From positions 938,406 through 1,002,405 of the forward strand of contig JAHLLG010000002.1 of the NCBI GenBank assembly GCA_020444275.1: a stretch of DNA of 64,000 bases, given 5' to 3'. The first letter of the stretch is position 1, and every line of letters starts with the position of its first letter. The stretch is from Bacteroidota bacterium (GTDB lineage: Bacteria; Bacteroidota; Bacteroidia; Bacteroidales; UBA12077). Shown here piece by piece: positions 17,174-64,000 of the stretch. The notes below the pieces were generated by a model that saw nothing but the letters and a program-made list of their open reading frames with translations, had not been told where the DNA came from and made no database searches. The position numbers were made by a program, and so were the translations under genes.

Positions 17174-17215
17174 CTTTCTATTTCAAATTTTAGATTTCAG
17201 ATTTCAAATTTCGAT
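17174..17215. repeat. Heptamer tandem repeat (TTTCARA) between batA and batB
   Basis: CTTTCTA TTTCAAA TTTTAGA TTTCAGA TTTCAAA TTTCGAT. Confidence 0.7.
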
Positions 17216-17239
17216 AATGAAATAATAAACCTGAAATAG

Positions 17240-18232: not shown

Positions 18233-18253
18233 AACTCAATATCAACTAATAAT

Positions 18254-19264: not shown

Positions 19265-19281
19265 AAACTACTTTCGTTCAA

Positions 19282-20166: not shown

Positions 20167-20185
20167 CGGTTTTAGTGGTTATACA

Positions 20186-20599: not shown

Positions 20600-20617
20600 G
20601 ATGAGATTATGTAACTT

Positions 20618-46782: not shown

Positions 46783-48123
46783 CTAGTACTTTATCAGCAT
46801 TTCTACAGTATGCTGTTTAAGGTAAGTGCGGATTATTTGCTGTACGTCTCTATTATCAGGATAAACTTTTATGGCATCCGAAAGATTTTCTATATCGTTT
46901 CCAATGCAATCTGCATCGATATAACCAAATCCTATGAATTTACCATGCTCTATTTTAACTACAGATTTTTCATTGTCATTTCTACCAGTATCGACAATAA
47001 AAAAGTTTTGCCAGTTATATGAAAGTTCATCTAACATTTGCTGTACTCTTGTATTATATTTTTCGGGCTGCTCCTTCTGAATGCAAGCTCCCATACAATG
47101 ATTTATCTGATAGTAAAAACACGCTCCGGCCGATTCATATAAACCACACAATTTTTGGCAAAGCTGATACTTTTCTGAAAGAACATACATCCTTTCACGA
47201 GCTTCTTTTGCCGAATTAAACGCTACAACCGGAGTTTCTTTCTTAACATCGTCTACTTTAAAACATATATATCCGTGTGAATCGGTATATGGAAATATTC
47301 CATAATGATTTATAGCACGCCGTTGTCTTTTATTGTATTTAGGTTTCTGTGTTTTAATTTCATCCGATTCTAATAAAAGAGCAACCAATTCGCTACCGGT
47401 TAATTCATACGAAACATCGTGTATTTCATCAATCATTCTTAGTGCCCGATCCGATTTCTCGTTACTGAAGTGTGAAAACACACGGGTTCTTATATTTTTG
47501 CTTTTCCCAATATAAATGATCTCACCATTATGATCATGAAAATAATAGACTCCCGGTTCATCAGGCAGATTTTTAATAATATCGGCACTAATATTATAAA
47601 ACATGCTTGAATTTATGCCACCAAGCGATGGACTAATTTCCAGCAAATGCTCAAACAGTTTTACTGTTGCCAATGCATCACCAGCAGCTCTGTGTCTTCC
47701 GTCTAATGGTATTCCTAATGAACTGCAAAGTTTTCCTAAACTATACGATTTATGATTAGGAATAATCCGTCTGCTTAACTTAACAGTACATAATCGGTCT
47801 CTTTTAAACGTATATCCTAAACTTTTAAATTCGTTTCGAATAAAGTTATAATCGAACGAAGCATTGTGAGCAACAATCGACTTTCCCTCTGTAAGAATCA
47901 CAATATCTTTTGCAATTTCCCAAAATTTTGGAGCATCCTGCACCATATCATTGTTTATACCTGTTAAGCGAGTTATGTTGAACGGAATAGTCTGTTCCGG
48001 ATTAACCAGTGTTGAATATTCCTCGACAATCTCTTTACCATTATGAATAAAGATTGCGATTTCAATGATTTTATCTCGTACAGGGCTTAAACCAGTAGTT
48101 TCAATATCCAGAATTGCATACAT
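46783..48123 (-). CDS. DEDDh 3'-5' exonuclease (DnaQ-like) fused to a GIY-YIG (UvrC-like) nuclease
   Basis: DIETTG, HNASFD, HRAAGDA and GVYYF...IYIGKS motifs. Start moved to ATG 48123 because the track start at 48192 lies inside a terminator. Confidence 0.9.
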   Translation of the reverse strand: MYAILDIETTGLSPVRDKIIEIAIFIHNGKEIVEEYSTLVNPEQTIPFNITRLTGINNDMVQDAPKFWEIAKDIVILTEGKSIVAHNASFDYNFIRNEFKSLGYTFKRDRLCTVKLSRRIIPNHKSYSLGKLCSSLGIPLDGRHRAAGDALATVKLFEHLLEISPSLGGINSSMFYNISADIIKNLPDEPGVYYFHDHNGEIIYIGKSKNIRTRVFSHFSNEKSDRALRMIDEIHDVSYELTGSELVALLLESDEIKTQKPKYNKRQRRAINHYGIFPYTDSHGYICFKVDDVKKETPVVAFNSAKEARERMYVLSEKYQLCQKLCGLYESAGACFYYQINHCMGACIQKEQPEKYNTRVQQMLDELSYNWQNFFIVDTGRNDNEKSVVKIEHGKFIGFGYIDADCIGNDIENLSDAIKVYPDNRDVQQIIRTYLKQHTVEMLIKY

Positions 48124-48178
48124 AGTACAAAAATGCAAATAATAGATCACATTCGGTATATCGATTATAAAAATAGAT

Positions 48179-48207
48179 AAAAAAACCTGCACGATAATGC
48201 AGGTTTT
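48179..48207 (-). terminator. Terminator of the DHOD-like gene
   Basis: AAAACCTGCA-N6-TGCAGGTTTT plus A-tract. Confidence 0.75.
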
Positions 48208-48228
48208 GTAGTTATTGTAAAGTAAATT

Positions 48229-49227
48229 TTATACGACTAATCCTTTTCCCGAGAAATACTTCATAAACTGCATTCGCTCATAAGCTGCCGGATTCTGTGC
48301 TTTATCCTGACTCATTTTTCCTCTAAAATCATCCAATGTTTTATACCCTTTTTCATCCATCCAAATGGACACTTCACTTAACATATTCTTGATTATTCCT
48401 TTTCCGTTTTTGTAAAAAGCCGATGCAATTTCTACCACATTAGCTCCAGCCAATATCTGTTTAATAATAGCTGCACCATCGTGAATACCTGTTGAAGCCG
48501 CCAGATCACATCCTACACGATTATGCATAATACCAATCCATCGCAATGGCGTAGCCAATTCAGCTGGTGTACTAGTTACATTGGTCGAGAGTAGCTCCAG
48601 TTTATCAATATCGATATCGGGACTATAAAAGCGGTTAAATAACACCAAACCATCAATACCTGAGTTTGATAAATTCTGAATAAACTTGCCCAAGTTGGAA
48701 GAGTAGTAACTAATCTTTAACGAAACAGGTATTTTAACAATCTTTTTAACCTTCTCTACTATCTCAAAATATACCTTTTCATTTTCTTTATCAGACTTTT
48801 CCAAATCAGATGGCATAATAAAAACGTTAAGTTCCAGCGCATCCGCACCAGCGTCTTGTAATGTTTCGGCATAATATGGCCACTTTTCAGAAGTCATACA
48901 ATTTATACTTGCAATAATAGGAATATCAACGGCTTTTTTAGACTCTCTGATTAATCGCAAATAATTTGTTAACGAATCATCTTCAGCATAATTATCATAA
49001 TAATCCAATGTTTCCGGATACAGAGAAGTTTCCATATTCATCACATCCATATCTTTTTCAAGTTCTCTGCGAATTTCTTCTTCGAATATTGATTTTAAAA
49101 CAATTGCCCCTGCACCATTCTCCGCAAATTCCTTAATATCTTCAACTGAATTTGTTAACCCGGAACTTGCAGCAATAACAGGATTTTTGAGCTTTAGTCC
49201 CATGTAACTTGTACTTAAGTTTGCCAT
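48229..49227 (-). CDS. Dihydroorotate dehydrogenase-like flavoprotein
   Basis: LKNPVIAASS, LKSIFEEEI, LFNRFYSPD and YERMQFM motifs; lacks the SCPN catalytic Cys. Confidence 0.85.
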   Translation of the reverse strand: MANLSTSYMGLKLKNPVIAASSGLTNSVEDIKEFAENGAGAIVLKSIFEEEIRRELEKDMDVMNMETSLYPETLDYYDNYAEDDSLTNYLRLIRESKKAVDIPIIASINCMTSEKWPYYAETLQDAGADALELNVFIMPSDLEKSDKENEKVYFEIVEKVKKIVKIPVSLKISYYSSNLGKFIQNLSNSGIDGLVLFNRFYSPDIDIDKLELLSTNVTSTPAELATPLRWIGIMHNRVGCDLAASTGIHDGAAIIKQILAGANVVEIASAFYKNGKGIIKNMLSEVSIWMDEKGYKTLDDFRGKMSQDKAQNPAAYERMQFMKYFSGKGLVV

Positions 49228-49446
49228 AATTTTTATGTTTTTAGTTTTTGAAATATAAAGTTATTATGAATTAATGCTAATGTCAATGTTTTATACTTTG
49301 ATTGTACTGTTTGTTAGTTAACAGTACCCGCCAAAAAATGTTCATCACCATAATTAATTAAATAGTAGAGTGGTTTTATACATTAATCAAAATAACGTGC
49401 TATTATCTATTGATTAATTTGCACTTAATTAAAAATATCAGGAATT

Positions 49447-51963
49447 TTGATTTATGAACGGATGCTTAATGAAAAGGTAATGAAATCAAAGAAACAACTA
49501 AAAGCAGAAATTGAAAAATTACATGATGAAATTGCCTCATTGAAAAATCAATCAGTAAATAAACCTATTCTGGATACCAACTTGAATAGCCACGACTTAT
49601 TTTACTCTATTTTCGAAGAAGCGGGAATTGGAATGGCTATAATTAATAAAGATGCCAATATTGTAAGATTTAATAAAAGTTTTAAAAGTTTATTTGATTA
49701 TTCCAATAATGAATTACTGGCAAAAACATACTTTGATTTAATTCCTGACAATAAAATAGATAAAGCTCATCAGTTTATAGAATCAATGTTTAGCGCCAAA
49801 CTAAATAAATATGAAGCAGAACAACCCTATATAAAAAGTGATGGAACCATAATTTGGTTAAAACTGACAGCATCGCTCATAAAAAATTCGGATGGTGAGC
49901 CTGAGTATATCTTAGGTATGGGAGAAGATGTTACGGAATTAAAAAAGGCGGAAATAATTAAAGATGCTGTATATAATATCTCTAATGCTGTTAGCAATAG
50001 TTACAATTTATCTGAACTAATTGAATCTATTAAAGATAATCTTTCTAAAATAATAGATTCAGAGCACTTTTTTATAGCCATTTATAATGAAATAGAAGAT
50101 AGTTTAAGCATACCCTATCTAGCTGAAAATAAAGAAAATTTTAAAACATTTACAGCTAAAAATACCTTGCCAGGTTATGTAATACAAGAAAAGAAATCTC
50201 TATTCTTAAATCAACAAGAAATATCTAATTTACAAGAGAATAAAAAGATAGATATCCAGGGAGAAGTATGTAAACAATGGTTAGGAATTCCACTAATCAA
50301 CCAGGAAAAATGTGTTGGAGTTTTAAGCGTAAAAAGCTTTGAATCAGAAACTGCATTCAGTTATAACGATTTGACCATTCTGGAAATTCTATCGAATCAG
50401 ATTAGTGATGCTATTCAAAAAATACGCACAGAAGAAGCATTAAAAGTGGAAAGGGCTTATTTTAAAGAGTTATTTGATAACAGTCCTGAAGCGATAGCTA
50501 TTGTTGACAATTCGAGTAAAATTATCAATATTAATAATGAGTTTACTGAGCTCTTTGGATATTCTAAAAACGAGGCAATTAATCAATCCATTGAAGATTT
50601 AATTTCTACACCTGCTTATAAAGATGAGGCTCATAATCTAACTACTGAAATTGCTGTACGTAAAAAAACGGTTAAAATTGATACCAAGCGTCGTAAGAAG
50701 GATGGATCAATGGTAGAAGTCTCGCTTTGGGGAACTCCTATAATTCTTGACAAGGGGCAAATTGCTGTATATGCTATATTCCGAGACATTACAGAACGTA
50801 TTGAAGCTAAAAAAAAGCTGGAAGAGGCTAAAGATAAAGCAGAGGAATCAGATCGATTAAAAACCTCATTCCTAACCAACATGTCGCATGAAATACGCAC
50901 CCCGATGAATGCTATTGTCGGATTCTCGGAGTTAATTGCAGAACCCACTACCGATCAGGAATCTCGTAAAGAATTCGCTGAACAGATTTACAACAGTAGT
51001 AAAATGTTGCTAAAATTAATCGACGATATTATTGATATTTCACAACTGGATTCTGCAAACCTGGAATTAAACATCAAGAAGACCAATCTTTCCAAGTTAC
51101 TTTCTGATATTTTCACTAAATTTTCAAAAGAAAAAATTAAGGAAAATAAAGATAATATTGAGCTTCTTTTGCATAATCCTTTTGGCGATTTAACAACTTA
51201 CATTGAAACCGATGAGTTTAGATTTAAGCAAATATTTTACAATCTGATAAACAATGCATTAAAATACACGGAGCAAGGTTTTATTGAGTTTGGATTTGAT
51301 GTAAACCACAACGACGAACCAATTTTTTATGTCAGAGATACCGGTATAGGAATACCTGCTGATAAAATAAATAGTATTTTTCAACATTTTACGAAAATTG
51401 AAGATAGAAGAAAATTGTATAGAGGAACAGGAATAGGGTTAACCATAACAAAAAAATTGGTTAGCTTGCTGGGAGGAGAAATATGGGTTGAATCAAATCT
51501 TGGTATTGGATCGATATTTTATTTTACTATAAGCGAAAAAGTTTCCTTTGTTAAACTTAAGAATTCTTCTTTGGATAATAAAATATATAATTGGGCAGGT
51601 AAAAAGATTTTAGTAGCCGAAGATGACGATACAAATTATCAGGTGATTAAAGCTTCATTATCTCGAACACACGCAAATTTAGTGAGAGTGCATAATGGTG
51701 AAAAAGCTGTAGACGAATGCTTATCTAATGCGTTTGATCTAATTATTATGGATATTAAAATGCCTAATCTGGATGGCATTGAAGCAACTAAGAAAATAAG
51801 ATTTAAAAACCGGAATATTCCTATTATAGCACAAACTGCATTCTTTCTTAAAAATGAAAGAGACACGTGTATTGATGCCGGATGTAACGATTATATTCCG
51901 AAGCCTGTAAACTCTCGTAAATTGCTTGAAACCATTAACAAATACTTTATTAACGGGAACTAA
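49447..51963 (+). CDS. Cytoplasmic PAS-GAF-PAS hybrid histidine kinase/response regulator
   Basis: PAS/PAC and GAF domains; MSHEIRTPMN, NALKYT, DTGIGI, GTGIGL and receiver MDIKMP. True start may be ATG 49461 or 49480-region. Confidence 0.92.
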   Translation: MIYERMLNEKVMKSKKQLKAEIEKLHDEIASLKNQSVNKPILDTNLNSHDLFYSIFEEAGIGMAIINKDANIVRFNKSFKSLFDYSNNELLAKTYFDLIPDNKIDKAHQFIESMFSAKLNKYEAEQPYIKSDGTIIWLKLTASLIKNSDGEPEYILGMGEDVTELKKAEIIKDAVYNISNAVSNSYNLSELIESIKDNLSKIIDSEHFFIAIYNEIEDSLSIPYLAENKENFKTFTAKNTLPGYVIQEKKSLFLNQQEISNLQENKKIDIQGEVCKQWLGIPLINQEKCVGVLSVKSFESETAFSYNDLTILEILSNQISDAIQKIRTEEALKVERAYFKELFDNSPEAIAIVDNSSKIININNEFTELFGYSKNEAINQSIEDLISTPAYKDEAHNLTTEIAVRKKTVKIDTKRRKKDGSMVEVSLWGTPIILDKGQIAVYAIFRDITERIEAKKKLEEAKDKAEESDRLKTSFLTNMSHEIRTPMNAIVGFSELIAEPTTDQESRKEFAEQIYNSSKMLLKLIDDIIDISQLDSANLELNIKKTNLSKLLSDIFTKFSKEKIKENKDNIELLLHNPFGDLTTYIETDEFRFKQIFYNLINNALKYTEQGFIEFGFDVNHNDEPIFYVRDTGIGIPADKINSIFQHFTKIEDRRKLYRGTGIGLTITKKLVSLLGGEIWVESNLGIGSIFYFTISEKVSFVKLKNSSLDNKIYNWAGKKILVAEDDDTNYQVIKASLSRTHANLVRVHNGEKAVDECLSNAFDLIIMDIKMPNLDGIEATKKIRFKNRNIPIIAQTAFFLKNERDTCIDAGCNDYIPKPVNSRKLLETINKYFINGN

Positions 51964-53779
51964 AATCGTTCATTAAATATTGCAAATAAGCTTTCCCTTT
52001 TATTAAATCATCTTCTGTTTTACCTTCCTGGTACAAAATTCTATTTCCTACATTATCATAAATTACTTTTGAAGAATCAGTTATAAAAGAAAAGCCATCA
52101 TTGAAAACATAAAAGGCAAATTCGTTCGACTCTTCAGATAAGATGTTTTTACTAAATGCATAATCGTTATAATTAAAACCCAGTTGAGAAAGAACAGTAG
52201 CAGGAATATCAATTTGCGAGCCAATTCGGTTAACAACCTGAACTGAATCATTTAATACACCACCAAGCCATAACATAGGTATTTCAAATTTTTCCAACTC
52301 ATGATTTTGCGAGTTTCCCGGACGAGCGCTTCCATGATCAGCAATCAAAATAAATAAAGTATTATTCCAAATTTCTGTGGCTTTTATCTTTCTGAAAAAG
52401 TCTCCAAGACAACTATCAGTATAAGCAACTGAATTTAAGTATTTTGAATCAAGATCTGTTCCATCAAAAGCTGAGTGCATTGGCACCTCATATGGATCGT
52501 GACTACTTAACGTAAAAGCTGTTTTTAAATAAGGCTGGTTATCTTTTAGAAGATCCTCGTATAAATAGTTAAACAGATATTCATCGTGCACTCCCCATTT
52601 TGAATTGTTTAGTTCTTTATCAAAATTATCAACCGTAATGAGGTGATCAACTCCTGCATTTAAGAAGTAAGAACGCATATTTGCAAAATCAATATCGCCA
52701 CCATAATAAAAATAGGTTTCATATCCATGTTTACTAAACGACTTATAAACGGATGGCAATGATTCTGTTTTTGTTGGAGTTTTAATTATCGATGTAGTGG
52801 GTTGCCCCGGATAACCACTTAGTACCGATAAAATACCTTTATCGCTTCTACTTGCATTGGCGTAAAGGTTTTTGAACACAATACCTTCATTCATAAGATT
52901 GCTTAAGTTAGGAGCTGCATTCCATCGGCCTCCTAATTCAGGAATAACTTTCGACGAAAAGCTTTCCAATAATATAATTACTACATTGGGATTATCAGAA
53001 GAAATAAGATCAAAAGCATTACCACCTCTCCTATTTAGCTCATGAACAATTTCTTCGGCTTTTCTATCGCTCATAAAACTGTATGACTTTTCATGATTTT
53101 TTCTGTAAAAAACAGAATTCATCACATTCCAAACCACATTTACTGCTGCATGATTAGCAAATTTGTTTTCACTAAAATATACCATTCCAGTATTCATAGG
53201 TGCAATACCTACACTACCACGGATTGGTAAAATCATACTTCCGGTAAGTAATAATAAAAATAGCGGTGCAGTTATTCTGCCTTTTTCAATTTTAAGAACC
53301 TGTGGTTTTATTTTTCTGTTGTATGTGCAAATGCCCAACAATACCAGTGCAACAATAAACAACACTAATGCTATTTCGAGCCATAATGCAGTAGATGCCA
53401 TAGCTTCTTTAGGTTGAGTTATATAAAGCAGAGGAGTTGCATCCATTCTAAAACCCCAGTTCTTGTATAATTCCATATCAACAACAACAATAACTGAAGA
53501 AACAACTAATACAAATATGGTAAAAGGTTTTATGATTTTATTTATCCATTTACCATTGGTTATGCTTGTTAATGTTAATATTAATCCTACTGCAGCCATT
53601 ATGTATCCTGTTGTAGAAAGATCCATCCTTAAGCCGTTAACAAAAACAAGAATAGTTTCTTTAAAACTTAACTGAAGCGAAAAGCTGTTCTCATAAATTA
53701 AAAAAAAGAAGCGAGCCAGAATAAAATATACAATCCAAAAAATGGCATATCGGAAAAAAAAACGCAGTCGTTGTTTCAT
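51950..53779 (-). CDS. LTA synthase / sulfatase-like membrane phosphotransferase
   Basis: N-terminal TM segments; LESF, RSDKG, SSHDPY and ADHG motifs. Confidence 0.88.
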   Translation of the reverse strand: MKQRLRFFFRYAIFWIVYFILARFFFLIYENSFSLQLSFKETILVFVNGLRMDLSTTGYIMAAVGLILTLTSITNGKWINKIIKPFTIFVLVVSSVIVVVDMELYKNWGFRMDATPLLYITQPKEAMASTALWLEIALVLFIVALVLLGICTYNRKIKPQVLKIEKGRITAPLFLLLLTGSMILPIRGSVGIAPMNTGMVYFSENKFANHAAVNVVWNVMNSVFYRKNHEKSYSFMSDRKAEEIVHELNRRGGNAFDLISSDNPNVVIILLESFSSKVIPELGGRWNAAPNLSNLMNEGIVFKNLYANASRSDKGILSVLSGYPGQPTTSIIKTPTKTESLPSVYKSFSKHGYETYFYYGGDIDFANMRSYFLNAGVDHLITVDNFDKELNNSKWGVHDEYLFNYLYEDLLKDNQPYLKTAFTLSSHDPYEVPMHSAFDGTDLDSKYLNSVAYTDSCLGDFFRKIKATEIWNNTLFILIADHGSARPGNSQNHELEKFEIPMLWLGGVLNDSVQVVNRIGSQIDIPATVLSQLGFNYNDYAFSKNILSEESNEFAFYVFNDGFSFITDSSKVIYDNVGNRILYQEGKTEDDLIKGKAYLQYLMNDFSSR

Positions 53780-53853
53780 ATGTTATTAAAAGTTTATGCA
53801 AAAATAAAATTATTGTTATTTTAGTTACATCTTTTAACAAATTTTAATTTATT

Positions 53854-54834
53854 ATGAAAAAATATATATCGTTAGCTGTTTTAATCATATTTATGGTTTT
53901 TCTTATAATTAGCTGTAAACAGATTGATCAGGAAACAAAGAAACCAGATTATGTAATAGTAATTCATGGAGGAGCAGGAAATGCCAGCAACCAGGATATT
54001 AATAAAGAAGAGCAACAAGAATATAAAGAGAAGTTATCCGAAGCATTAACCATTGGCGAAAACATTCTTAAAGAAGGTGGAACCAGTATTGAAGCTATTG
54101 AAAAAACCATAAACTATCTAGAAGATTGCCCAATGTTTAATGCTGGCAAAGGTGCTGTTTTTACACATGATGGTAAAAATGAGTTAGATGCTTCCATAAT
54201 GAACGGAGCTGATTTAAATGCAGGTGCAGTTGCGAGTGTTGGTGATATTAAAAATCCAATATCAGCTGCTATAAAAGTAATGAATAACTCAGAGCATGTT
54301 TTACTTTCTGGTCATGGTGCATCAGAGTTTGCCAAGGAGCAAAACATAGAAATTGTAGATTCTTCATATTTCTTTACTGAAAAAAGATGGGAAAGCTTAC
54401 AGCACGTTCTTAAATCGAAAAAACACGGCACAGTAGGATGCGTAGTTCTTGACAAATATGGTAATCTTGCTGCCGGAACATCGACCGGTGGAAGAACAAA
54501 TAAAAAATATGGGCGTATTGGAGATTCACCAATTATTGGAGCCGGCACATATGCTAATAATAATACATGCGCCATTTCTGCAACAGGACACGGTGAATAT
54601 TTTATTCGTTATGCAGTAGCACACGATATTTCGGCACTTATGGAGTATAAAGACATGAGCCTTGCTGAAGCTTCTGAACTGGTAATTAATAAAAAATTAG
54701 TAGAAGCCGGAGGTTTAGGTGGTATTATTGGTGTCGACAAAAATGGAAATATTGCAACGACATTCAATACTAACATGATGTTTAGAGCCTATGCGAAATC
54801 GACAGGTGAAAGAAAAATTGCAATATTTAAATAA
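53854..54834 (+). CDS. iaaA: Isoaspartyl peptidase/L-asparaginase (Ntn hydrolase), lipoprotein
   Basis: IHGGAG, HG|TVG nucleophile, TSTGG, GRIGDSP and TGHGE motifs; ISC lipobox. Confidence 0.9.
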   Translation: MKKYISLAVLIIFMVFLIISCKQIDQETKKPDYVIVIHGGAGNASNQDINKEEQQEYKEKLSEALTIGENILKEGGTSIEAIEKTINYLEDCPMFNAGKGAVFTHDGKNELDASIMNGADLNAGAVASVGDIKNPISAAIKVMNNSEHVLLSGHGASEFAKEQNIEIVDSSYFFTEKRWESLQHVLKSKKHGTVGCVVLDKYGNLAAGTSTGGRTNKKYGRIGDSPIIGAGTYANNNTCAISATGHGEYFIRYAVAHDISALMEYKDMSLAEASELVINKKLVEAGGLGGIIGVDKNGNIATTFNTNMMFRAYAKSTGERKIAIFK

Positions 54835-54996
54835 TCTGTTAAACGGGTAAACAGAATTATTAACAATATATAGTGGATTATTTCTTACTAATAATTCATT
54901 ATATCTAATAGAAATATTATAAATTTGGAACTAATCGTTTTTTAAAACAAAAAGTAATTATTACTGGCAAAGTTATACTGAACCAATTTTTAACAC

Positions 54997-56088
54997 ATGA
55001 CGAACGAAGACTCTAATGCCTTTTTTGAATCGGGAATAAAAAGCTTTTTTAAAAACTCTCTTCAATTTAATCTTAAGTACTACAAATCTATTCCTTTTAT
55101 AATTTATAGTATTTATAATCAGTACAAAGCATATTTAAAACGAAAAGAAATGCTAAAGCAAGGAATAAATATACCTCCGGTTATGGCATTAAGTATTACC
55201 GATAAATGTAACCTGAATTGCAAAGGTTGTTACCTAAAATCACAGAAGAGAACTCAGAAAGCTCCAATAACCGATCAGGAGATTGAAAAATATCTTAAGG
55301 AATCGAAGGAATTGGGTGTAAGTATTATCCTGTTGTTAGGTGGTGAACCTTTAATGAAAGATGTGTTTAAACTAACCAAAAATCATAAGAATATGATCTT
55401 TAGTATGTTTACTAATTCTACATTAATTGATGATAGTATGGTAAAGAAACTAAAGAAAAACAAACATATTATACCTATCTTAAGTATGGAAGGAACCGAT
55501 ACTAACCAGCGCAGAGGTTCGGGAATACTGGAAAGTATCGAAAACGTTTCCAAAAAACTTAATCGTGAAAAACTACTATTTGGAATATCATTAACAGTAA
55601 CACGGCAAAATTTTGACGAAGTATGTAGTGAAGAATTTGTAAACAAACACAAGAGAGCCGGTAGCATGTTCTTTTCGTATTTTAGGTATATTCCTATTGA
55701 TACCAGCACAATGGACATGGTACTTACAGAAGAACAAGAAAAACGTTTTGAAGAATTCACATGCTCTTTTAGAGAAAAATATAAAACATTAATTTTGTCG
55801 CCTGCTATAGAAAAAAAATATGGAGGTTGTTTAGGAGCCGGTAAGGGAGTTGCACATATAAACTATGATGGTTCTTTGGAAGTATGCCCATTTGCTCCTT
55901 TTTCAGATGTATCGGTTCGAAACATGTCAATTCGGGAAGCCTTGCAGTCCAGTTTATTTATGAATTTAAGAAAGCATCATAAAAAAATGATCGATAACGG
56001 ATTAAGCATGTGCACTCTTTGGAAAGATGAGAAATGGGATTATGCCATTAAAAATAACGATTTTAGTGTAGTTGATAATACTTATTAA
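54997..56088 (+). CDS. Radical SAM protein with SPASM/twitch-type C-terminal domain
   Basis: CNLNCKGC, GGEP, FTN and GGCLGAG...HINYDGSLEVCPF...C motifs. Confidence 0.9.
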   Translation: MTNEDSNAFFESGIKSFFKNSLQFNLKYYKSIPFIIYSIYNQYKAYLKRKEMLKQGINIPPVMALSITDKCNLNCKGCYLKSQKRTQKAPITDQEIEKYLKESKELGVSIILLLGGEPLMKDVFKLTKNHKNMIFSMFTNSTLIDDSMVKKLKKNKHIIPILSMEGTDTNQRRGSGILESIENVSKKLNREKLLFGISLTVTRQNFDEVCSEEFVNKHKRAGSMFFSYFRYIPIDTSTMDMVLTEEQEKRFEEFTCSFREKYKTLILSPAIEKKYGGCLGAGKGVAHINYDGSLEVCPFAPFSDVSVRNMSIREALQSSLFMNLRKHHKKMIDNGLSMCTLWKDEKWDYAIKNNDFSVVDNTY

Positions 56089-56202
56089 GTAAGACGTTCG
56101 TTTATAACTACCAAATATTCATCCGGTATCTATTAATTTTTGAAATCTTCAAATCATAGAGATCATAACTATAATCCATTTGAAATTTGAATTACACGAT
56201 GT

Positions 56203-56601
56203 ATGAAAAAAGATCACGTACCTCAAAATAAAAATAACCTGCATAAAGGAACCTACAAAACAGTAGTTTATGCTGTTGATGATAATGGAGAATATGTTAA
56301 GGTAAAAACATCAGGTTGGGAACCTGAAGATATTGCGCATGAACAAGCGTGGGAACAAATTAATAAGAGAATTGAAGATACAAAAAAGCAGATACTACAG
56401 GGAGAATTAAGTCCATTAGCTTATTATATGGAAAAATCCATTATGACACCAAAAAGACTTGCTGCAATGGCCGAACTACCCGTACGAAAAGTTAAACGAC
56501 ATCTAAAACCTAAAAGATTTAGAAAGCTAAAAGAAAAATATCTTACCATTTATGCCCAGGTTTTTGATATCACTGTAGAAGACTTAACTAATTTCAAATA
56601 G
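56203..56601 (+). CDS. Conserved small protein of the type seen next to BtrH-like/ABC genes in flexirubin/dialkylresorcinol clusters
   Basis: MKKxxVPQ, YAVDDNGEY, SGWEPE, SPLAYYM and VKRHLKP blocks; family recognised from memory. Confidence 0.7.
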   Translation: MKKDHVPQNKNNLHKGTYKTVVYAVDDNGEYVKVKTSGWEPEDIAHEQAWEQINKRIEDTKKQILQGELSPLAYYMEKSIMTPKRLAAMAELPVRKVKRHLKPKRFRKLKEKYLTIYAQVFDITVEDLTNFK

Positions 56602-56608
56602 TACTATT

Positions 56609-57541
56609 TTGAGCCGGAGAAAACGCAAAATCGAAGAAATCTTACGTTACCTTGAAAGAATTCCTGAATCTCAGTTTGATTATTCAAAAAATGAAAACAT
56701 CAGGTTTTTTCGAAACATATTCAATTTAAAAGCATTTTTTTACTGGAAAAAAAAGCATTTGCCTTTAATTGATACTGAGCGCTTAACGGAATTAACTGAT
56801 TTTGGAAACGAAAAATATTCTGAGGAACTTCACCATAGTATGATCAAAGTGGAACGCGGACTAATTCCCGGTTTTATAACCCCTCTGGTTAATGAGATTT
56901 CCAAATACATCCTGAAACAAAATTCCAATTTACTTATTGCAGATATTGGTTCAGGGTCGTCAGAAGCTACTCGTCAGGTTTTACAAAAGATTTTAAAAAA
57001 ACGAAACGATATTAAACTAACCATTATTGCCTTTGACCAATCCAAAGCATCACATACCATTGCTAAATCAAACATCTCCTCTCTATCTTCTTCTCCGCAA
57101 ATAATTGAAAAAGAAAATTTAACGCAGGATGAACTGCTTAAAATTAGAGAAACATCAACCAGTAAAATAACAGTAATTTTTGCCAGCAACGACATTTTCA
57201 ATCTTACCTGCGATTTTGATAAAACAACATTCGACATCTCGTATCACTCGTTTTTTAAACATCACCTGAATAAAACGCAGAAAGAAAAAATTGATCATAT
57301 ACTGCAAGAAAAATCGAAGATAGTATTTGAATACGATGGCTTCTATAATATTTCCGGTATGACAGTACAGGCTTTATATAGTTGGAAAGATCCCGTTTTA
57401 TTAAATGGAGCAGTTTTTTCTAATTTGTTATATCCTAAAAAGAGCGATTTAGAAAAAAATAAACAAAACGGTAAATTAAAATTCTATAAATTTGGTAACT
57501 TCTTTACATATCGAGGGACCTATTTAAAAACGTATAGCTAA
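56609..57541 (+). CDS. Divergent class I SAM-dependent methyltransferase-like protein (TTG start)
   Basis: IADIGSGS motif I, IAFDQS motif II, FDISYHSFFKHHL. Confidence 0.65.
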   Translation: MSRRKRKIEEILRYLERIPESQFDYSKNENIRFFRNIFNLKAFFYWKKKHLPLIDTERLTELTDFGNEKYSEELHHSMIKVERGLIPGFITPLVNEISKYILKQNSNLLIADIGSGSSEATRQVLQKILKKRNDIKLTIIAFDQSKASHTIAKSNISSLSSSPQIIEKENLTQDELLKIRETSTSKITVIFASNDIFNLTCDFDKTTFDISYHSFFKHHLNKTQKEKIDHILQEKSKIVFEYDGFYNISGMTVQALYSWKDPVLLNGAVFSNLLYPKKSDLEKNKQNGKLKFYKFGNFFTYRGTYLKTYS

Positions 57542-57543
57542 AC

Positions 57544-58539
57544 ATGGAACAGAAGGTAATTATAGATTTTCCGCACAAACAGTTATCGCATTGCGAAAAT
57601 GGAGCTATTTGTAACTTATTAAACTTTAACAATTTTGATATAAGTGAACCGCTGATTTTTGGTATAGGTTCAGGAATATTTTTTGCCTATATGCCTTTTG
57701 TTAAGAATTATGATATCCCACTTACATCCTATAGAATAATGCCTGGACAGATCTACAAAAATGCAACCAAGCGATTAAATGTAAAGATGTTTAAACGGAC
57801 CTATAAGGACAAGCAAAAAGCTATGGATGAGTTGGATCAGATGCTTGAAAAGGGACAACCTGTCGGGTTACTAACTAATCTCTATTATCTACCTTTCTTC
57901 CCAAAATCATATCGTTTTCATTATAACGCGCATAATACAATTATTTATGGAAAAGATGGAAATAATTACCTGGTAAGCGATCCTGTACTCGAAGATAAGG
58001 CAACCATTTCGTATGATGATTTACTAAAAGCCAGATTTGCTAAAGGAATTATAAGTGTTAAAGGTGATATATACTACCCTCTGTCAGTACCTGAAAATCT
58101 CGATATTAGTAAATCTATAAAGCAGGGAATGCAAGCTACTAAAAAGTTAATGATCAAAAATCCTATACCTTATCATGGCATTACAGGTATAAAATTATTA
58201 GCTAAACGAATTCGAAAAGAAAAAGATAACACCGAGTTTATAAAAGCATTTTTAGGTAATATAATACGTATACAAGAAGAAGCAGGAACAGGAGGTGCGG
58301 GATTCCGATACATGTATGCAGCGTTTTTGCAGGAAGCTGCCAAAATATTACAACAAGATCAACTCTATAAAACCTCTGAAAAGCTAACTCAGGTGGGCGA
58401 TTCATGGAGAGAATTTGGTTTAAATGCAGGTAGAATTCTTAAAGGTAGAAGTGCTGATCAGAATGGAACATTCAATACCATAAATGATATTTTACTCGAC
58501 ATAGCAGATCAAGAAAAACAGATATTTCAATCTTTTTAG
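57544..58539 (+). CDS. BtrH N-terminal-domain (papain/C39-like) putative acyltransferase/peptidase
   Basis: HCENG catalytic Cys, SEPLIFGIGSG, FHYNAHN His, VSDPV and QEEAGTGGAGFRYMYAAFLQEA motifs. Confidence 0.85.
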   Translation: MEQKVIIDFPHKQLSHCENGAICNLLNFNNFDISEPLIFGIGSGIFFAYMPFVKNYDIPLTSYRIMPGQIYKNATKRLNVKMFKRTYKDKQKAMDELDQMLEKGQPVGLLTNLYYLPFFPKSYRFHYNAHNTIIYGKDGNNYLVSDPVLEDKATISYDDLLKARFAKGIISVKGDIYYPLSVPENLDISKSIKQGMQATKKLMIKNPIPYHGITGIKLLAKRIRKEKDNTEFIKAFLGNIIRIQEEAGTGGAGFRYMYAAFLQEAAKILQQDQLYKTSEKLTQVGDSWREFGLNAGRILKGRSADQNGTFNTINDILLDIADQEKQIFQSF

Positions 58540-58552
58540 AATTTTGAAGTTC

Positions 58553-59314
58553 ATGCAAAAGCACGAATCGAACACAGTTATTCAAGTCAACAACTTGAAT
58601 AAAAAATATAAAAACTCTTTAGAGTTTGCTGTCAATAACCTTTCCTTTACCGTACAAAAAGGAGAAATTTTTGGTTTATTAGGTCCAAACGGAGCAGGAA
58701 AAACCACTACAATAAATATAATTACCGGAACCTTAAAACCCACCTCAGGTCAGGTAAACATTGCAAACCAGAGCATTAAACGTAATTTTAACACTCTGAA
58801 ACAAAAAATAGGAGTTGTTCCTCAGCAAATTGCTCTTTATCCTACATTAAACGTTTACAACAACTTACTGATTTTTGGAAATCTGTACGGAATAAAAAAA
58901 CAAATTCTTAATAACAATATAAGAAAATACCTTAAAATCTTTGGCCTGGAACATAAGGTTAAAGCAAAAGTGAAACACTTATCAGCCGGAATGCAAAGAA
59001 GATTGAATATTATTGCCGGTCTTCTGCATAATCCCGAAATTTTAATACTGGATGAACCTACTGCAGGAATCGATGTGCAATCTAAGCAGTTTATAATTAA
59101 TAATTTAATTCAATTAAACAAAGCTGGAACAACAATATTATATACATCGCACTATATGGAAGAAGCAGAAAAATTTTGTTCACATATAGCCATTATTGAT
59201 AATGGTAATATTATAATACAAAATAAACCACAAAACTTAATTTCTCAGTATCCTGATTGCACTAACCTTGAGGATGTTTTCATCCATATTACCGGTAAAC
59301 AGTTAAGAGAATGA
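58553..59314 (+). CDS. ABC exporter ATP-binding subunit
   Basis: GPNGAGKTT, LSAGMQRR, LDEPTAGID and SHYMEE motifs; likely ATG at 58553. Confidence 0.93.
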   Translation: MQKHESNTVIQVNNLNKKYKNSLEFAVNNLSFTVQKGEIFGLLGPNGAGKTTTINIITGTLKPTSGQVNIANQSIKRNFNTLKQKIGVVPQQIALYPTLNVYNNLLIFGNLYGIKKQILNNNIRKYLKIFGLEHKVKAKVKHLSAGMQRRLNIIAGLLHNPEILILDEPTAGIDVQSKQFIINNLIQLNKAGTTILYTSHYMEEAEKFCSHIAIIDNGNIIIQNKPQNLISQYPDCTNLEDVFIHITGKQLRE

Positions 59315-60564
59315 ATATAAAAAAACTATTAATTCTTATATACAAAGATTTTCTCGTTTTATTAAATGATAGAGCGGGTTTAGGTTATATGTTTGTGCTG
59401 CCTGTGTTTCTGGTATTTATAATGGTTGTTATTCAAGATTCATCCTTCAAAGCGGTTAATGATTTCAATATTAACATTGTGATACAGAACAGCGATAAAG
59501 ATACCTTAGGTAATACGATTGTCAGAGAATTAAAGGAATCAGGTTATTTCACAATTAAGTTAGACACACAAAATAATAGATCAGAAATTGAAAATCTGGT
59601 TGCTAAAGGCGAATATAAAATTGGGATTATCATACCCGATAGTTCTACATATAAACTCAAAAAGGAAATTCTTAAAAATGTAAGCAAGGCTTTTTCATCG
59701 GGTAAATCACAAAAAACAAAACAGTCCGATTCTACCCGAATAGAAATATTCTTCGATCCGGTAACCCGGACCTCCTATAAGCGAATGATCTTGAGCATGC
59801 TGGAATCACACAATCAAAAGGTTAAAAACCAGCTTCTAATGGAACAAATCAACAGAAGAGTACCCTTTATAAAATCAGATATTGAAGTACGCGATATTAT
59901 AAGTTATAAAGAAAGTTATGCTTCCGTTGAAGATTCAAAGATTATCCCCAACTCAGTACAACATAATGTTCCGGCCTGGACGCTCTTTGCCATGTTTTTT
60001 ATTGTTATGTCGCTGGCAGGAAATATGATCAAAGAGAAAGATGACGGTAGTTTTGTTCGTTTAGTTTATGCTCCTTTCCCATTACATTATTATCTGTTAG
60101 CTAAACTGATTACGTACATGATTATCGGATTAATTCAATTCATTTTAATGATTTTAATGGGAATGTATATATTACCCTTATTCGATTTTCCCGCTTTAGA
60201 CATTAGCAATAAATTTCTATCACTGTTTATTATTGGACTTTTTGCCTCGCTTGCAGCTGTAGGATTTGGAATCCTTGTTGGATCGTTCGCTAAAACATAT
60301 CAACAATCGACAACACTGGGATCAATTGTTGTGGTAATTTTTGCTGCCATAGGAGGCGTGTGGGTTCCTGTATTTGCAATGCCTGCCTTTATGAGAACAA
60401 TTAGTATTATTTCTCCTTTAAACTGGGGCGTAAAAGCTTTTCATAATACACTGGTTAGAGATTTATCGTATACTGAAAGTATGACCGAAATAACATTACT
60501 AGCATTATTTTTTATCTTGTGTATGATAATATCTGCATTACGATTTAATATCAGGGATAATTAA
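59311..60564 (+). CDS. ABC-2 type exporter permease
   Basis: N-terminal TM, periplasmic loop, PNSVQHNVPAW, five further TM segments, SPLNWG; ATGA overlap with the ATPase gene. Confidence 0.92.
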   Translation: MNIKKLLILIYKDFLVLLNDRAGLGYMFVLPVFLVFIMVVIQDSSFKAVNDFNINIVIQNSDKDTLGNTIVRELKESGYFTIKLDTQNNRSEIENLVAKGEYKIGIIIPDSSTYKLKKEILKNVSKAFSSGKSQKTKQSDSTRIEIFFDPVTRTSYKRMILSMLESHNQKVKNQLLMEQINRRVPFIKSDIEVRDIISYKESYASVEDSKIIPNSVQHNVPAWTLFAMFFIVMSLAGNMIKEKDDGSFVRLVYAPFPLHYYLLAKLITYMIIGLIQFILMILMGMYILPLFDFPALDISNKFLSLFIIGLFASLAAVGFGILVGSFAKTYQQSTTLGSIVVVIFAAIGGVWVPVFAMPAFMRTISIISPLNWGVKAFHNTLVRDLSYTESMTEITLLALFFILCMIISALRFNIRDN

Positions 60565-60623
60565 CTCATATTCAACAAAAAATATTTTGCATAATTCAAA
60601 TAAAAAATACAATTTTGAATAAC

Positions 60624-60664
60624 CGACAAGAGAGAAAGTAAACCTTTCTCTTTTTTTGATGTCG
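60624..60664 (+). terminator. Terminator-like hairpin with outer helix; either the ABC operon terminator or a leader element of the S8 gene
   Basis: CGACA..AGAGAAAG-TAAAC-CTTTCTCT-T-tract..TGTCG. Confidence 0.6.
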
Positions 60665-60691
60665 AATCAGTAAATTAAAACGTAATAAAAC

Positions 60692-62284
60692 ATGAAAAAG
60701 ACACTTTTATTGTCCTCAGCCTTGCTAATATCCTTTATAACACTAGCTCAGAATGAAGCTAAAAAGGATTCAACACAACAAAAAGAAGATATTTATCTTA
60801 ACTGGTACAACAAATCACCTATTGATGACGAAATATTTGGTGCTGAAGTAGATAAAGCTTATCAAGAATTACTACAAGACAAAAAATCATCTACTGTAAT
60901 TGTTGCTGTCATTGATGGAGGTATTGACATAACGCACGAAGATCTGAAGAATAACATCTGGGTAAATACCGATGAAATAGCGGATAATGGTATCGATGAT
61001 GATAACAATGGTTATACCGACGATATCCATGGATGGAATTTCTTAGGTAATGCAGATGGTGAAAACATCTCTAATGAAACACTTGAAATTACCAGAATCT
61101 ATAGAAGATATAAGGATAAAGATGATTTAACAAAAGAAGAAAAGAAACTTTATAAAGATGCCAAAAAACTCTATAAAAAAGAGTTAAGAATGGTAAATAT
61201 GCAGAAAAAAGGTTTCGAAAAATTTAAGGACAAATACAACACAACCTATTCGAATATTACAGAAGCATTAGGTAAAGACACTCTTACTATTCAGGATCTT
61301 GATAGTTTAAAAGAAATAAACAAGAAACTGAAAAAGGATATTAAATTCCAGTATCGCTTTGTTAAATACGGTTTTTCATCTGCCATTTTTGATAAAATGG
61401 ATGATATGGTAAATGAGAGATTAGACTACCACCTAAACCTTGATTTTAATCCACGAGAAATAATTGGTGATGATGTATCAAGTCTGTCATCTGCAAATGG
61501 AAATAACAATGTGTATGGACCAGAAGCTTTCCACGGAACGTTTGTTTCAGGAATAATAGCTGCAGAGCGTGATAATGAAATCGGAATCAATGGAATTGCA
61601 AGCGATGTTCAGATCATGGCTTTAAAAGTAGTCCCTAATGGTGACGAGCGAGATAAGGACGTTGCCAAAGCAATTCGTTATGCTGTAGATAATGGTGCCA
61701 AAGTAATTAACATGAGTTTTGGCAAACAATTATCTCCTTATAAAAAGCTGGTTGATGAAGCAATTCTTTATGCCGAAGAGAATGGCGTATTACTGGTACA
61801 TGCTGCTGGTAACGATGGTTTTAATATTGATAAGGTAAAACAATACCCAACCAAGAATGTTAGCGAAACAAAGCAGATCAGTTCGTGGATTACCGTAGGT
61901 GCTTCATCAATGAGTAATACAAAAGGATTTGCTGCCAGCTTTACAAATTATGGTAAAGAAATGGTTGATATTTTTGCACCGGGTGTAAGAGTAAAATCCT
62001 TAACTCCGGAAAGCAAATACGAAGTTGCTGACGGAACTAGTTTTTCGGCTCCGGTTGTTTCAGGTGTTGCTGCACTTGTATTATCATATTATCCTGAACT
62101 ATCAGCTAATGAGCTAAAAGATATTCTTTTAAAATCTGTAAATAATTATGCAACGTTAGAGGTAAATAAACCGGGTGATTATTCTAAGCGAAAAAAGACT
62201 GTTCTATTTGGCGATCTTTCTAAAACTGAAGGAATTGTAAGTGCTTATAAGGCATTAAAACTCGCTGAAGAATTTAGTAAATAA
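60692..62284 (+). CDS. Secreted S8 (subtilisin-family) serine protease
   Basis: Signal peptide; VIDGG (Asp), FHGT (His), AAGN and GTSFSAP (Ser) motifs. Confidence 0.94.
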   Translation: MKKTLLLSSALLISFITLAQNEAKKDSTQQKEDIYLNWYNKSPIDDEIFGAEVDKAYQELLQDKKSSTVIVAVIDGGIDITHEDLKNNIWVNTDEIADNGIDDDNNGYTDDIHGWNFLGNADGENISNETLEITRIYRRYKDKDDLTKEEKKLYKDAKKLYKKELRMVNMQKKGFEKFKDKYNTTYSNITEALGKDTLTIQDLDSLKEINKKLKKDIKFQYRFVKYGFSSAIFDKMDDMVNERLDYHLNLDFNPREIIGDDVSSLSSANGNNNVYGPEAFHGTFVSGIIAAERDNEIGINGIASDVQIMALKVVPNGDERDKDVAKAIRYAVDNGAKVINMSFGKQLSPYKKLVDEAILYAEENGVLLVHAAGNDGFNIDKVKQYPTKNVSETKQISSWITVGASSMSNTKGFAASFTNYGKEMVDIFAPGVRVKSLTPESKYEVADGTSFSAPVVSGVAALVLSYYPELSANELKDILLKSVNNYATLEVNKPGDYSKRKKTVLFGDLSKTEGIVSAYKALKLAEEFSK

Positions 62285-62306
62285 AATATTTCAATATAAA
62301 TGTAAC

Positions 62307-62335
62307 AAGCACCTGTTAAGTCAGGTGCTTTTTTT
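62307..62335 (+). terminator. Terminator of the S8 protease gene
   Basis: AAGCACCTG-N6-CAGGTGCTT plus T-tract. Confidence 0.82.
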
Positions 62336-62371
62336 ATGGTATTCAATAAATAAAACAATATTTTAACAATT

Positions 62372-62932
62372 ATGAGTAAACGAGAACAGATACTAACTAC
62401 CACACTTAATTTAGTTGCTGAAATTGGTTTTCATGCCACATCTATTCCGCTAATAATTAAAAGGTCGGGAGCAGCAGCCGGAACAATATATTATTATTTC
62501 AAGAATAAGGAAGAGTTAATTGACACCTTATATTCAGAGCTTAGAAAAGAGATGGCACATGCCATTATACAAAACATTGATGCTGATATAACCTATAAAG
62601 AAAAGTTTATACTCATTTGGAAAAACTTATTTGCTTTTTATATTCAAAATCCTAAAAAATTTGAATTTCTTGAAGATTACGCCAACTCACCGTTCATAAA
62701 AAAAGAGATTAAGGCAATTAATCGAAGGCATTATCAATCGGCTATCAATTTTTTCGAATCAGGCATTAAGCTCGGAATCCTGAGAGAACTACCACTTGAT
62801 TTAATGATCAACACCGTTTTTGGAAATGTAGCTACCCTTTCCAGGATGGTTATTATGGAAGAAATTGATTTAACAGATCAGATACTTCACGATTGCATGC
62901 AATCAAGCTGGGATGCAATAAAAATTAACTAA
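62372..62932 (+). CDS. TetR/AcrR-family regulator
   Basis: GFHATS...AAGTIYYYFKNKEEL helix-turn-helix. Confidence 0.93.
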   Translation: MSKREQILTTTLNLVAEIGFHATSIPLIIKRSGAAAGTIYYYFKNKEELIDTLYSELRKEMAHAIIQNIDADITYKEKFILIWKNLFAFYIQNPKKFEFLEDYANSPFIKKEIKAINRRHYQSAINFFESGIKLGILRELPLDLMINTVFGNVATLSRMVIMEEIDLTDQILHDCMQSSWDAIKIN

Positions 62933-62961
62933 AAAAACAGTCCGTTAGGACTGTATCTTTT
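62931..62961. terminator. Bidirectional terminator between tetR and rubredoxin
   Basis: ACAGTCC-GTTA-GGACTGT with flanking A/T tracts. Confidence 0.7.
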
Positions 62962-63115
62962 ATAAAGGTTCGTAATCTTTTTTGGTTACACCACATATCG
63001 GACATTTCCAATCATCAGGAATATCTTCGAATGGTGTTCCGGCAGCAATACCACCAGGTATGTCGCCTACTTCCGGGTCATAAATATGACCACATACTTT
63101 ACATTTATACTTCAT
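62960..63115 (-). CDS. Rubredoxin (51 aa, below the ORF-track cutoff)
   Basis: Hand translation: [51 protein letters not shown], with two CxxC motifs. Confidence 0.95.
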
Positions 63116-63126
63116 ACTATTTCATT

Positions 63127-64000
63127 TTATGGTTTTACTTTTCTAACAGAATCTATAATTGTACCATCTACCCATTTAATCACCGCAACCAGCTCATCGT
63201 CAAAGTTGGCTTTAGCCGGCTTTCCGCAGATTTTTTCAGCCTCATCTTTTAGTTCTTCTATAGTTTTTATAGGTAAGGTAGAATCTTTCAATGCTTCAAT
63301 TAAATCTTTTCGCTTAGGATTAATTGCAATACCCCGTTCTGTTACAATCACATCAATTAATTCTCCAGGTCCGCAAATGGTAGTAACTTCATCGAGTATT
63401 ACCGGAATTCGATCTCTGAACAATGGTATCGGTAATATAACTGTTTTAGAGAATAAACAATTTTGCCAACCTCCTATTCCATGCAGCAATAATCCATCGG
63501 AGTGTGTTACTACGTTTGCATTGAAATTAACATCCACCTCGGTAGCACCTAATATTACTACATCAACTAATCCGGCAAAGTTACCTTTCCCATGATAGTT
63601 ATAACTTGTAAACGGACTGGTCCAAACATGATTTGGATTATCAGCCATAGATTGTACACCTTTTAAGTCGAAAGTTTGTCCATCCAATATATATTCTATT
63701 AATCCTTCTTCGAGCATGCTAACCAAGTATTTATTACTACCACCACGGGCAAACCTGGCTTTGATTCCTTCCTTTCGCATAATTTTAGCAAAGTAGTCGC
63801 CAACAGCTAACGAAGTGCCACCCGCTCCTGACTGAAAAGAGAATCCATCGCGAATAATTCCGGCTTCCCAACACAATTGCGCTGTCATTTCGGCCAACAG
63901 CAATCGATCAGGGCTTTTTGTTATTTGGGTTGTACCGGAAACTATTTTTTCAGGAATTCCAACCTGATCAACCTGAACAGTATAATCTACATAATTTCCC
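63127..64000 (-). CDS. citF: Citrate lyase alpha subunit (citrate:acetyl-ACP transferase); 5' end outside the window
   Basis: Frame is open to the window edge (GNYVDYTVQVDQVGIPEKIVSGTTQ); FQSGAGG, LGATEVDVNFNANV and DVIVTERGIAINP motifs. Confidence 0.9.
   Translation of the reverse strand, partial: GNYVDYTVQVDQVGIPEKIVSGTTQITKSPDRLLLAEMTAQLCWEAGIIRDGFSFQSGAGGTSLAVGDYFAKIMRKEGIKARFARGGSNKYLVSMLEEGLIEYILDGQTFDLKGVQSMADNPNHVWTSPFTSYNYHGKGNFAGLVDVVILGATEVDVNFNANVVTHSDGLLLHGIGGWQNCLFSKTVILPIPLFRDRIPVILDEVTTICGPGELIDVIVTERGIAINPKRKDLIEALKDSTLPIKTIEELKDEAEKICGKPAKANFDDELVAVIKWVDGTIIDSVRKVKP

Follow-up and report, generated by a model that had tools for sequence, protein, structure and literature searches.

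The window analysed here is a stretch of 64,000 nucleotides (nt) of contig JAHLLG010000002.1 from a Bacteroidales genome (assembly GCA_020444275.1), and the element in question is a block of six genes at positions 54997–60564. A listing of the window's open reading frames (ORFs) of at least 60 amino acids (aa) confirms six frames, all on the + strand. They encode a radical S-adenosylmethionine (SAM) enzyme (54997..56088, 363 aa; PF04055 at 53.8 bits, above cut-off), a small protein of the DarG family (56203..56601, 132 aa; NF053536 at 148.9 bits for a cut-off of 70), a protein assigned by its predicted fold to the class I SAM-dependent methyltransferases (56609..57541, 310 aa, TTG start), a DarH acyltransferase with BtrH_N and DUF4872 domains (57544..58539, 331 aa; NF053550 at 420.8 bits for a cut-off of 300) and, as optional members, the ATPase (58553..59314; PF00005) and ABC-2 permease (59311..60564; PF12698) of an ATP-binding cassette (ABC) exporter. 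The intergenic gaps are, in order, 114, 7, 2, 13 and −4 nt, the fourth shrinking to 4 nt if the ATPase starts at an upstream TTG (58544). Six co-oriented genes with this spacing had been proposed in an earlier note on the same DNA, and the coordinates bear this out; its assignment of the small protein and the BtrH-domain protein to known Dar types likewise agrees with the NCBIfam cut-offs.

The block is a real, conserved and rare cassette, namely a new form of the DarG–DarH–ABC module that comprises two uncharacterised enzymes. All six reading frames are open, with catalytic and cluster-binding residues kept. Genes for DarA, DarB, an acyl carrier protein (ACP) or a ketosynthase are absent from the block in the ORF listing of positions 48000–64000, as noted earlier; however, all of them are encoded elsewhere in the genome.

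Recurrence of the cassette in other genomes

Pattern scans for the methyltransferase-fold protein returned 19 loci from a species-level genome collection and 49 from metagenomes, some of them duplicates. A darG or darH gene stands beside the methyltransferase-fold gene in seven of these 68 loci (L046, L047, L065–L068 and L108) and in none of the other 61; about 16 of the 19 titled records of the protein belong to Patescibacteria or unassigned bacteria. Wherever identity to the window protein is at least 43% (six of six loci), darG lies directly 5′ of the methyltransferase-fold gene, and a radical SAM gene lies 5′ of darG in four of the five loci with enough sequence (gaps of 9, 11 and 35 nt in L065–L067). 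Gene order is kept at 43–79% identity, and the closest matches of the radical SAM and methyltransferase-fold proteins share four contig sizes (4247, 19018, 8769 and 15850). Since the order radical SAM–darG–methyltransferase recurs in four of five evaluable loci, these genes form a conserved unit. The idea of a module re-paired with new tailoring enzymes is thereby upheld: both enzymes accompany darG/darH in other genomes with tight gaps, contrary to one part of what the earlier note envisaged as a refutation, namely that they would never be found with the block elsewhere.

The exporter behaves differently. L046 and L047 have the ABC pair 3′ of darH; its place in L068 is taken by a darG–darH pair of the sulfotransferase-associated type. 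On a contig of about 88–92% identity that stems from another, independent run, radical SAM–darG–methyltransferase–darH occupy the same site as in the window, and 66 bases separate them from the protease side, versus 2121 in the window. A related species thus lacks the exporter where the window has it, so that the exporter is optional, and the core of the cassette consists of the genes for the radical SAM enzyme, DarG, the methyltransferase-fold protein and DarH. One metagenome locus also holds, directly upstream of the radical SAM gene, an ORF (L067:3-632) that we take to be transposase-like.

Features of the core proteins

DarG. The 132-aa protein falls below the cut-off of the flexirubin DarG equivalog NF053545 (156.6 bits for a cut-off of 170), and so does the DarG of the flexirubin-type cluster in the same genome (163.3). 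Its structural model (predicted local distance difference test score, pLDDT, 79.7) displays an N-terminal beta-hairpin, a long helix and a C-terminal helix-turn-helix fold of the XRE/Cro type; fold matches by Foldseek are weak, none reaching E ≤ 0.001. The resemblance of the C-terminal fold to XRE repressors would suit a DNA-binding regulator. However, darG is duplicated together with darH inside one flexirubin-type cluster in three of five other genomes sampled (G157, L238; G380, L240; G217, L247), and this gene-for-gene duplication favours a partner role over a regulatory one.

DarH. Of 41 aligned rows, at least 97% keep residues C17, H130 and D146, which would constitute a catalytic set, as judged from the papain-fold acyltransferase family. 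In a tree of these 41 rows, from which the frameshifted copy of genome G434 and the order-level matches were left out, the six rows from methyltransferase loci form one clade (support 99/95), separate from the flexirubin-type and the sulfotransferase-linked clades.

Methyltransferase-fold protein. The model (pLDDT 93) finds its best fold match in NovO (Z 16.8, root mean square deviation 3.0, 203 residues aligned), and the features that define class I methyltransferases (Rossmann-like fold, DxGxG motif and acidic residue after strand 2) are present; DxGxG and FKHH are conserved in the family alignment (A1). All Pfam and NCBIfam models stay below cut-off, with weak methyltransferase matches only, and sequence searches of the PDB gave nothing useful for this protein or for DarH. 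The methyltransferase that the earlier note placed between darG and the BtrH gene thus stands by predicted fold and not by family match. Because the best structures share the top rank, no substrate can be read from the fold, and the non-methylating CmoA and RdmB are found among the structure matches. The 310-aa protein is a putative SAM-dependent methyltransferase, and its family has no name and comprises 196 clusters at 50% identity.

Two observations concern distant or aberrant members of this family. In the 250-aa protein P0012, a histidine-phosphatase portion at the N terminus is followed by the C-terminal half of the methyltransferase-fold protein (78% identical); P0012 is possibly an assembly chimera. 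In four loci from Patescibacteria or unassigned bacteria (L053, L071, L087 and L100), distant homologs stand in a recurring row that extends from about 6 kb on the 5′ side of the match to 2 kb on its 3′ side. Named from their sequences, its genes are CoA-ligase-like, ThiF-like and nitroreductase-like (the last sometimes fused to the methyltransferase-fold gene), followed by the methyltransferase-fold gene and a membrane histidine kinase gene, so that the row looks like a locus for synthesis and sensing of a small-molecule signal in reduced genomes.

Radical SAM enzyme. The protein combines the CNxxCxGC motif with three C-terminal cysteines (C278, C297 and C339) that are invariant in the alignment of its relatives (A2). 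Its earlier description as a radical SAM/SPASM enzyme stands for the radical SAM part; the SPASM match (PF13186) reaches 16.5 bits and remains below the Pfam cut-off of 21.5. Among named NCBIfam radical SAM families none comes near its cut-off, and a PDB sequence search returns distant radical SAM enzymes only. Closer relatives are longer: identity is 33% over 301 aa with the 452-aa family member P0144, and 26–32% with relatives of 445–466 aa that carry all six sequence blocks described for Mss, the membrane-spanning lipid synthase.

Comparison with Mss was made through the part of the published block text that is available, the sequence criterion for Mss being at least 30% identity with E ≤ 1e-50 to a confirmed Mss. 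Blocks I–III (CNxxCxGC; GGEP with L, F and N; N/S/R with glycines) are matched in the window protein when alignment A2 is read against the supplement text, the asparagine of block III corresponding to an Asn/His-variable position. Blocks IV–VI (W..P..Q-R; Asp-Phe and VEPC; three prolines), as far as that text describes them, are not: the W and R of block IV, the Asp-Phe of block V, the P of VEPC (LEVC instead) and the prolines of block VI are replaced. A homolog search that started from a 445-aa relative yielded 3776 clusters, with no named Mss among the 120 matches listed. The window enzyme appears to be a short relative of a family whose features agree with the published account of membrane-spanning lipid synthases, and it is not classed as Mss.

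The insertion site

The asparaginase and S8 protease genes that flank the block are 84–88 nt apart in four of five close relatives and lie on different contigs in the fifth. An intrinsic-terminator-like hairpin with a T run (60628..60654, + strand; z −3.9, 2 of 200 shuffles folding as well) is present about 20–25 nt after the asparaginase stop codon in all four empty sites. The hairpin that had been described as closing the block is therefore there, but it is the asparaginase terminator, ancestral to the host locus and now situated 3′ of the cassette; its attribution to the cassette is rejected. With flanking genes adjacent in four of five relatives and a terminator that belongs to the host gene, the block represents an insertion, placed between the genes for the asparaginase and the S8 protease.

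The likely junction is marked by a 17-bp imperfect direct repeat. The left copy (54818..54834, + strand), at the 3′ end of the asparaginase gene, has one mismatch to the empty-site sequence. The right copy (60587..60603, + strand) is a degenerate copy of the last 17 bases of the asparaginase gene, with two mismatches to the empty site, and its distance to the terminator equals that of the asparaginase 3′ end in empty sites; matches as good as this one number 13 on both strands of the 4.2-Mb genome. Integration probably occurred at the asparaginase 3′ end, ahead of the terminator, an arrangement that could permit read-through transcription from the asparaginase gene. No integrase gene is found in the block, and neither codon use (z −0.9 to +1.5, within the genome range) nor GC content gives a sign of recent foreign origin. 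A scan for sigma-70 promoters was uninformative (48 sites for 55.7 expected), and the 114-nt gap 5′ of darG folds no better than shuffled sequences (z +1.3). Between the asparaginase and radical SAM genes lies an AT-rich hairpin of 15 pairs without a T run (54867–54903); regional folding is not significant there (z −1.4).

Partner clusters and distribution

The window is located on contig C9 of a 98.9% complete, 4.2-Mb genome (G000) that encodes paralogs of the cassette proteins. Elsewhere in the window, going by the look of their sequences, lie a gene resembling aldehyde-ferredoxin oxidoreductases together with a ferredoxin subunit (9651–12149) and a Bat-like MoxR/VWA/TPR operon (12764–21613). 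A flexirubin-type cluster at C9:427–456 kb comprises FlxA, FlxY, LolA2 and LolB2 (all over cut-offs), ketosynthases, ACPs and its own darGH with an ABC pair, the products of which share 46% (DarG), 47% (DarH), 51% (ATPase) and 39% (permease) identity with those of the window. Next to it, at C9:455.9–465.3 kb, a divergent block is headed by another DarG-like/DarH pair (DarH 35% identical to that of the window) and includes two ACPs, a sulfotransferase, B12 radical SAM enzymes, AcpS and FabD. Owing to these two paralogous pairs, the window DarG–DarH is the third pair of the genome. A ketosynthase module at C9:415.9–422.3 kb encodes a thioesterase, two enoyl-CoA hydratases, a phosphopantetheinyl-transferase-like protein, a FabH-like enzyme, a 3-hydroxyacyl-CoA dehydrogenase and FabF.

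The genes darA–darB stand alone at C9:846.3–848.4 kb (846345–848431), about 390 kb from the flexirubin-type cluster. DarB scores 614 bits for a cut-off of 550; DarA, matched by no family model, is assigned by 34% identity to a gene adjoining a DarB. Chitinophaga pinensis likewise has darAB and flx at separate loci, according to the available part of the source (PMC3992019). The flexirubin-type set of the genome looks complete. A FlxJ-like methyltransferase is encoded on another contig (C7:905065–906129), apart from the flexirubin-type cluster, and its homologs precede darG3 in genomes G434 and G435.

The ketosynthase/carrier-protein/sulfotransferase module of this genome is itself undescribed. 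The Bacteroidales cluster to which it belongs (C9:415906–422332 and 455910–467779; L184, L236–L245), likewise undescribed, gathers FabH-like and FabF enzymes, hydratases, ACPs, a sulfotransferase, several B12 radical SAM enzymes and a TonB-receptor-like gene. In several families this FabH-like/sulfotransferase cluster and clusters of the flexirubin type are interleaved.

These findings bear on two claims of the earlier note. Its picture of a self-contained system is not supported, as darA–darB, a flexirubin-type cluster and a ketosynthase/ACP module, found when the rest of the genome was checked, lie elsewhere, and in two loci the cassette is fused to the ketosynthase module. Its alternative, a split dar/flexirubin locus that would account for the block, holds as far as the splitting goes; the flexirubin cluster, however, possesses its own darGH and ABC pair and therefore does not account for the window copy. 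A flexirubin cluster that lacks, and needs, the window darGH is rejected on the same ground.

The cassette was found in three species-level genomes, the carriers being uncultured, and it occurs in none of 36 genomes of the genus. The methyltransferase-fold protein is absent from all 60 relatives searched, these 36 included. Matches to the radical SAM protein occur in 6 of 36 genus genomes (best 31%) and 32 of 400 order genomes (best 36%). DarH has matches in 31 of 36 genus and 74 of 400 order genomes, with no full-length match above 49% and one partial match at 51%, and darB is present in 27 of 36 genus genomes. Since the 27 genomes with darB and the 31 with darH are all devoid of the cassette, flexirubin genes do not explain it. 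For the FabH-like enzyme the counts are 29 of 36 within the genus and 23 of 400 within the order; all 24 order-sample genomes that have it, the genome studied here included, are also DarH-positive when the lists are compared by eye.

Linkage to the ketosynthase module

Outside the genome studied, the cassette is physically linked to such modules. In L047, from a Draconibacterium metagenome-assembled genome (MAG; G434), and in L065 it lies directly behind the dehydrogenase–FabF end of the ketosynthase module. The G434 cassette ends a cluster of about 28 kb that contains a darG3–darH3–ACP–sulfotransferase–B12 radical SAM block, an ACP, AcpS, FabD, LolA and a second ABC pair. In L068 the cassette adjoins darG3–darH3. 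G435 (L046) carries the partner blocks of G434 as well, on contigs other than that of the cassette, and each of the three cassette genomes that could be searched (G000, G434 and G435) encodes both the FabH-like module enzyme and the sulfotransferase block.

Proposed function and alternatives

It is held with moderate confidence that this rare inserted cassette, with its third DarG–DarH pair, radical SAM enzyme and methyltransferase fold, is a detachable tailoring and acyl-transfer module acting on carrier-protein-bound chains, probably those of the ketosynthase/ACP/sulfotransferase set encoded elsewhere. The FabH-like/FabF/hydratase/dehydrogenase module (C9:415.9–422.3 and 455.9–465.3 kb) would build an acyl chain on ACP. 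By analogy with Mss, the radical SAM enzyme, which may act in an Mss-like manner on a hydrocarbon chain, would activate an unreactive C–H bond and yield a C–C link or a desaturation. The putative methyltransferase would cap a hydroxyl, amine or carboxyl group or add a C-methyl. DarH, with DarG as its dedicated partner, would take the chain as a cysteine thioester and transfer it to an acceptor. The product would leave through the cassette ABC pair or, where this has been lost, through the host's paralogous exporter, and strains with the cassette would in this way have their own variant of an envelope lipid or pigment.

Several findings weigh against this proposal. Of the genomes in which no cassette was found, 29 of 36 in the genus and 23 of 400 in the order have the ketosynthase module, and this makes its joint presence with the cassette in three genomes weak evidence. 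Direct adjacency amounts to two loci of closely similar sequence, plus L068. The G434 copy has frameshifts in the radical SAM, methyltransferase-fold and darH genes and in further cluster genes, for which sequencing error is likely and decay the other possibility. The 213 nt that precede darG in L046 contain no radical SAM tail, and the sole homolog of that genome (43%) lies among unrelated genes. Distant members of both tailoring families occur in unrelated contexts, the rows of the DarH clade were selected via methyltransferase loci, and G109 (L246) has one darG for two darH.

A bolder version can be formulated, although it is speculative and rather doubtful. A short Mss-like radical SAM enzyme would have been recruited to a secondary-lipid pathway in which it couples two acyl chains tail to tail; the coupled chain would be loaded or esterified by a DarG–DarH pair dedicated to it and capped by the putative methyltransferase, so that a mobile add-on would give rise to a two-headed, membrane-spanning envelope lipid or pigment in Bacteroidales.

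Alternatively, the cassette might modify the flexirubin-type pigment, DarH being an alternative ligase of the aryl-polyene chain to the DarA–DarB dialkylresorcinol while the radical SAM enzyme and the putative methyltransferase decorate the pigment. The genome does have the required genes (DarB, FlxA, FlxY, LolA2 and LolB2, all over cut-offs), the window DarH is nearer to the flexirubin-type paralog than to the sulfotransferase-linked one, and NovO, the best fold match although tied with others, is a C-methyltransferase of phenolic rings. This is nevertheless considered unlikely: the flexirubin cluster is already equipped with a darGH and an ABC pair, most genus genomes have darB and no cassette, darA–darB adjoin the cassette in none of seven cassette loci, and G434, a MAG of unknown completeness, has the cassette and no DarB-family match over cut-off.

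Rather improbable is a self-sufficient cassette that would cross-link or methylate housekeeping acyl-ACPs or membrane lipids and export a small lipid signal or defence molecule. The insertion away from any synthase, and the ORF of L067 that we presume to be transposase-like, speak for such a view. Mss expressed alone acts on ordinary Escherichia coli fatty acids, according to the available part of its description (PMC13159169). What argues against it is that no ACP gene follows the permease here, in L046 or in L047, that the exporter is dispensable, and that the three searchable cassette genomes all carry a ketosynthase module that no more than 23 of 400 order genomes possess.

A group of passenger genes brought together by chance, in decay and without joint function, would fit the patchy distribution, the loss of the exporter in a relative, the missing radical SAM gene of L046 and the frameshifts of G434; it is judged very improbable in view of six open frames with retained residues, a gene order kept at 43–79% identity and codon use within the genome range. 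Least credible of all is a ribosomal-peptide system in which the 132-aa protein is modified by the radical SAM enzyme and the methyltransferase, cleaved by the papain-fold protein and exported: in its favour, the gene order mimics such clusters and there are weak matches to SPASM and Peptidase_C39_2, both under cut-off, but every named peptide-maturase model stays far under cut-off, and the small protein passes the DarG cut-off, has a folded helix-turn-helix domain and has homologs in ketosynthase clusters. The peptide-precursor reading is rejected because this folded DarG-family protein is the sole small ORF; no dedicated short precursor was found among ORFs of at least 60 aa, and the 114-nt gap shrinks to 9–35 nt in relatives.

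Three diverged DarG–DarH pairs in one genome, each with different partner enzymes, constitute a natural experiment on the role of the pair and on its choice of carrier and acceptor. The cassette also adds, both in a defined context, a methyltransferase-fold family without a name and a short, Mss-like radical SAM subfamily, and strains with the full cassette, without exporter and with an empty site offer ready comparisons.

Comparison with known systems

Outside the subscription literature, no publication was found that combines BtrH, radical SAM, methyltransferase and Bacteroid, nor one with DUF4872; within the same scope, BtrH in connection with flexirubin clusters is mentioned descriptively, and no biochemical work on DarG or DarH was found.

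NovO, BpumL, TmtA, Coq5 and CmoA share with the 310-aa protein the Rossmann-like SAM-binding fold (Z 15–17 over about 200 residues), but identity is 8–16% and the window protein has an extra N-terminal helical region. The likeness of the radical SAM enzyme to Mss (Thermoanaerobacter ethanolicus WP_129545148.1 and Thermotoga maritima Tmari_0825; PMC13159169, available in part) resides in blocks I–III. By the same partial description, Mss has 446 aa, whereas the window enzyme has 363 aa, lies inside an acyltransferase cassette and differs in the residues of blocks IV–VI.

BtrH of the butirosin pathway is an ACP:aminoglycoside acyltransferase. The BtrH family consists of papain-fold transacylases working with ACPs, as stated in the available part of PMC2922099. 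Butirosin BtrH has the BtrH_N and DUF4872 architecture and the conserved Cys-His-Asp set in common with the window DarH; unlike it, the window DarH has no aminoglycoside genes nearby and is paired with DarG.

Also among the closest known systems is the DarG–DarH–ABC–permease block of flexirubin/dialkylresorcinol clusters (NF053536, NF053550), which has the same four protein types in the same order. Its counterpart in Azoarcus BH72 is darD–darE–darF–darI, the names darG and darH designating other genes there, according to the available part of PMC3949708. In contrast to this block, that of the window has no adjoining darA–darB, ACP or ketosynthase genes, its darG is split from darH by a methyltransferase-fold gene, a radical SAM gene leads it, and its DarH, a member of the third pair, falls in a clade of its own.

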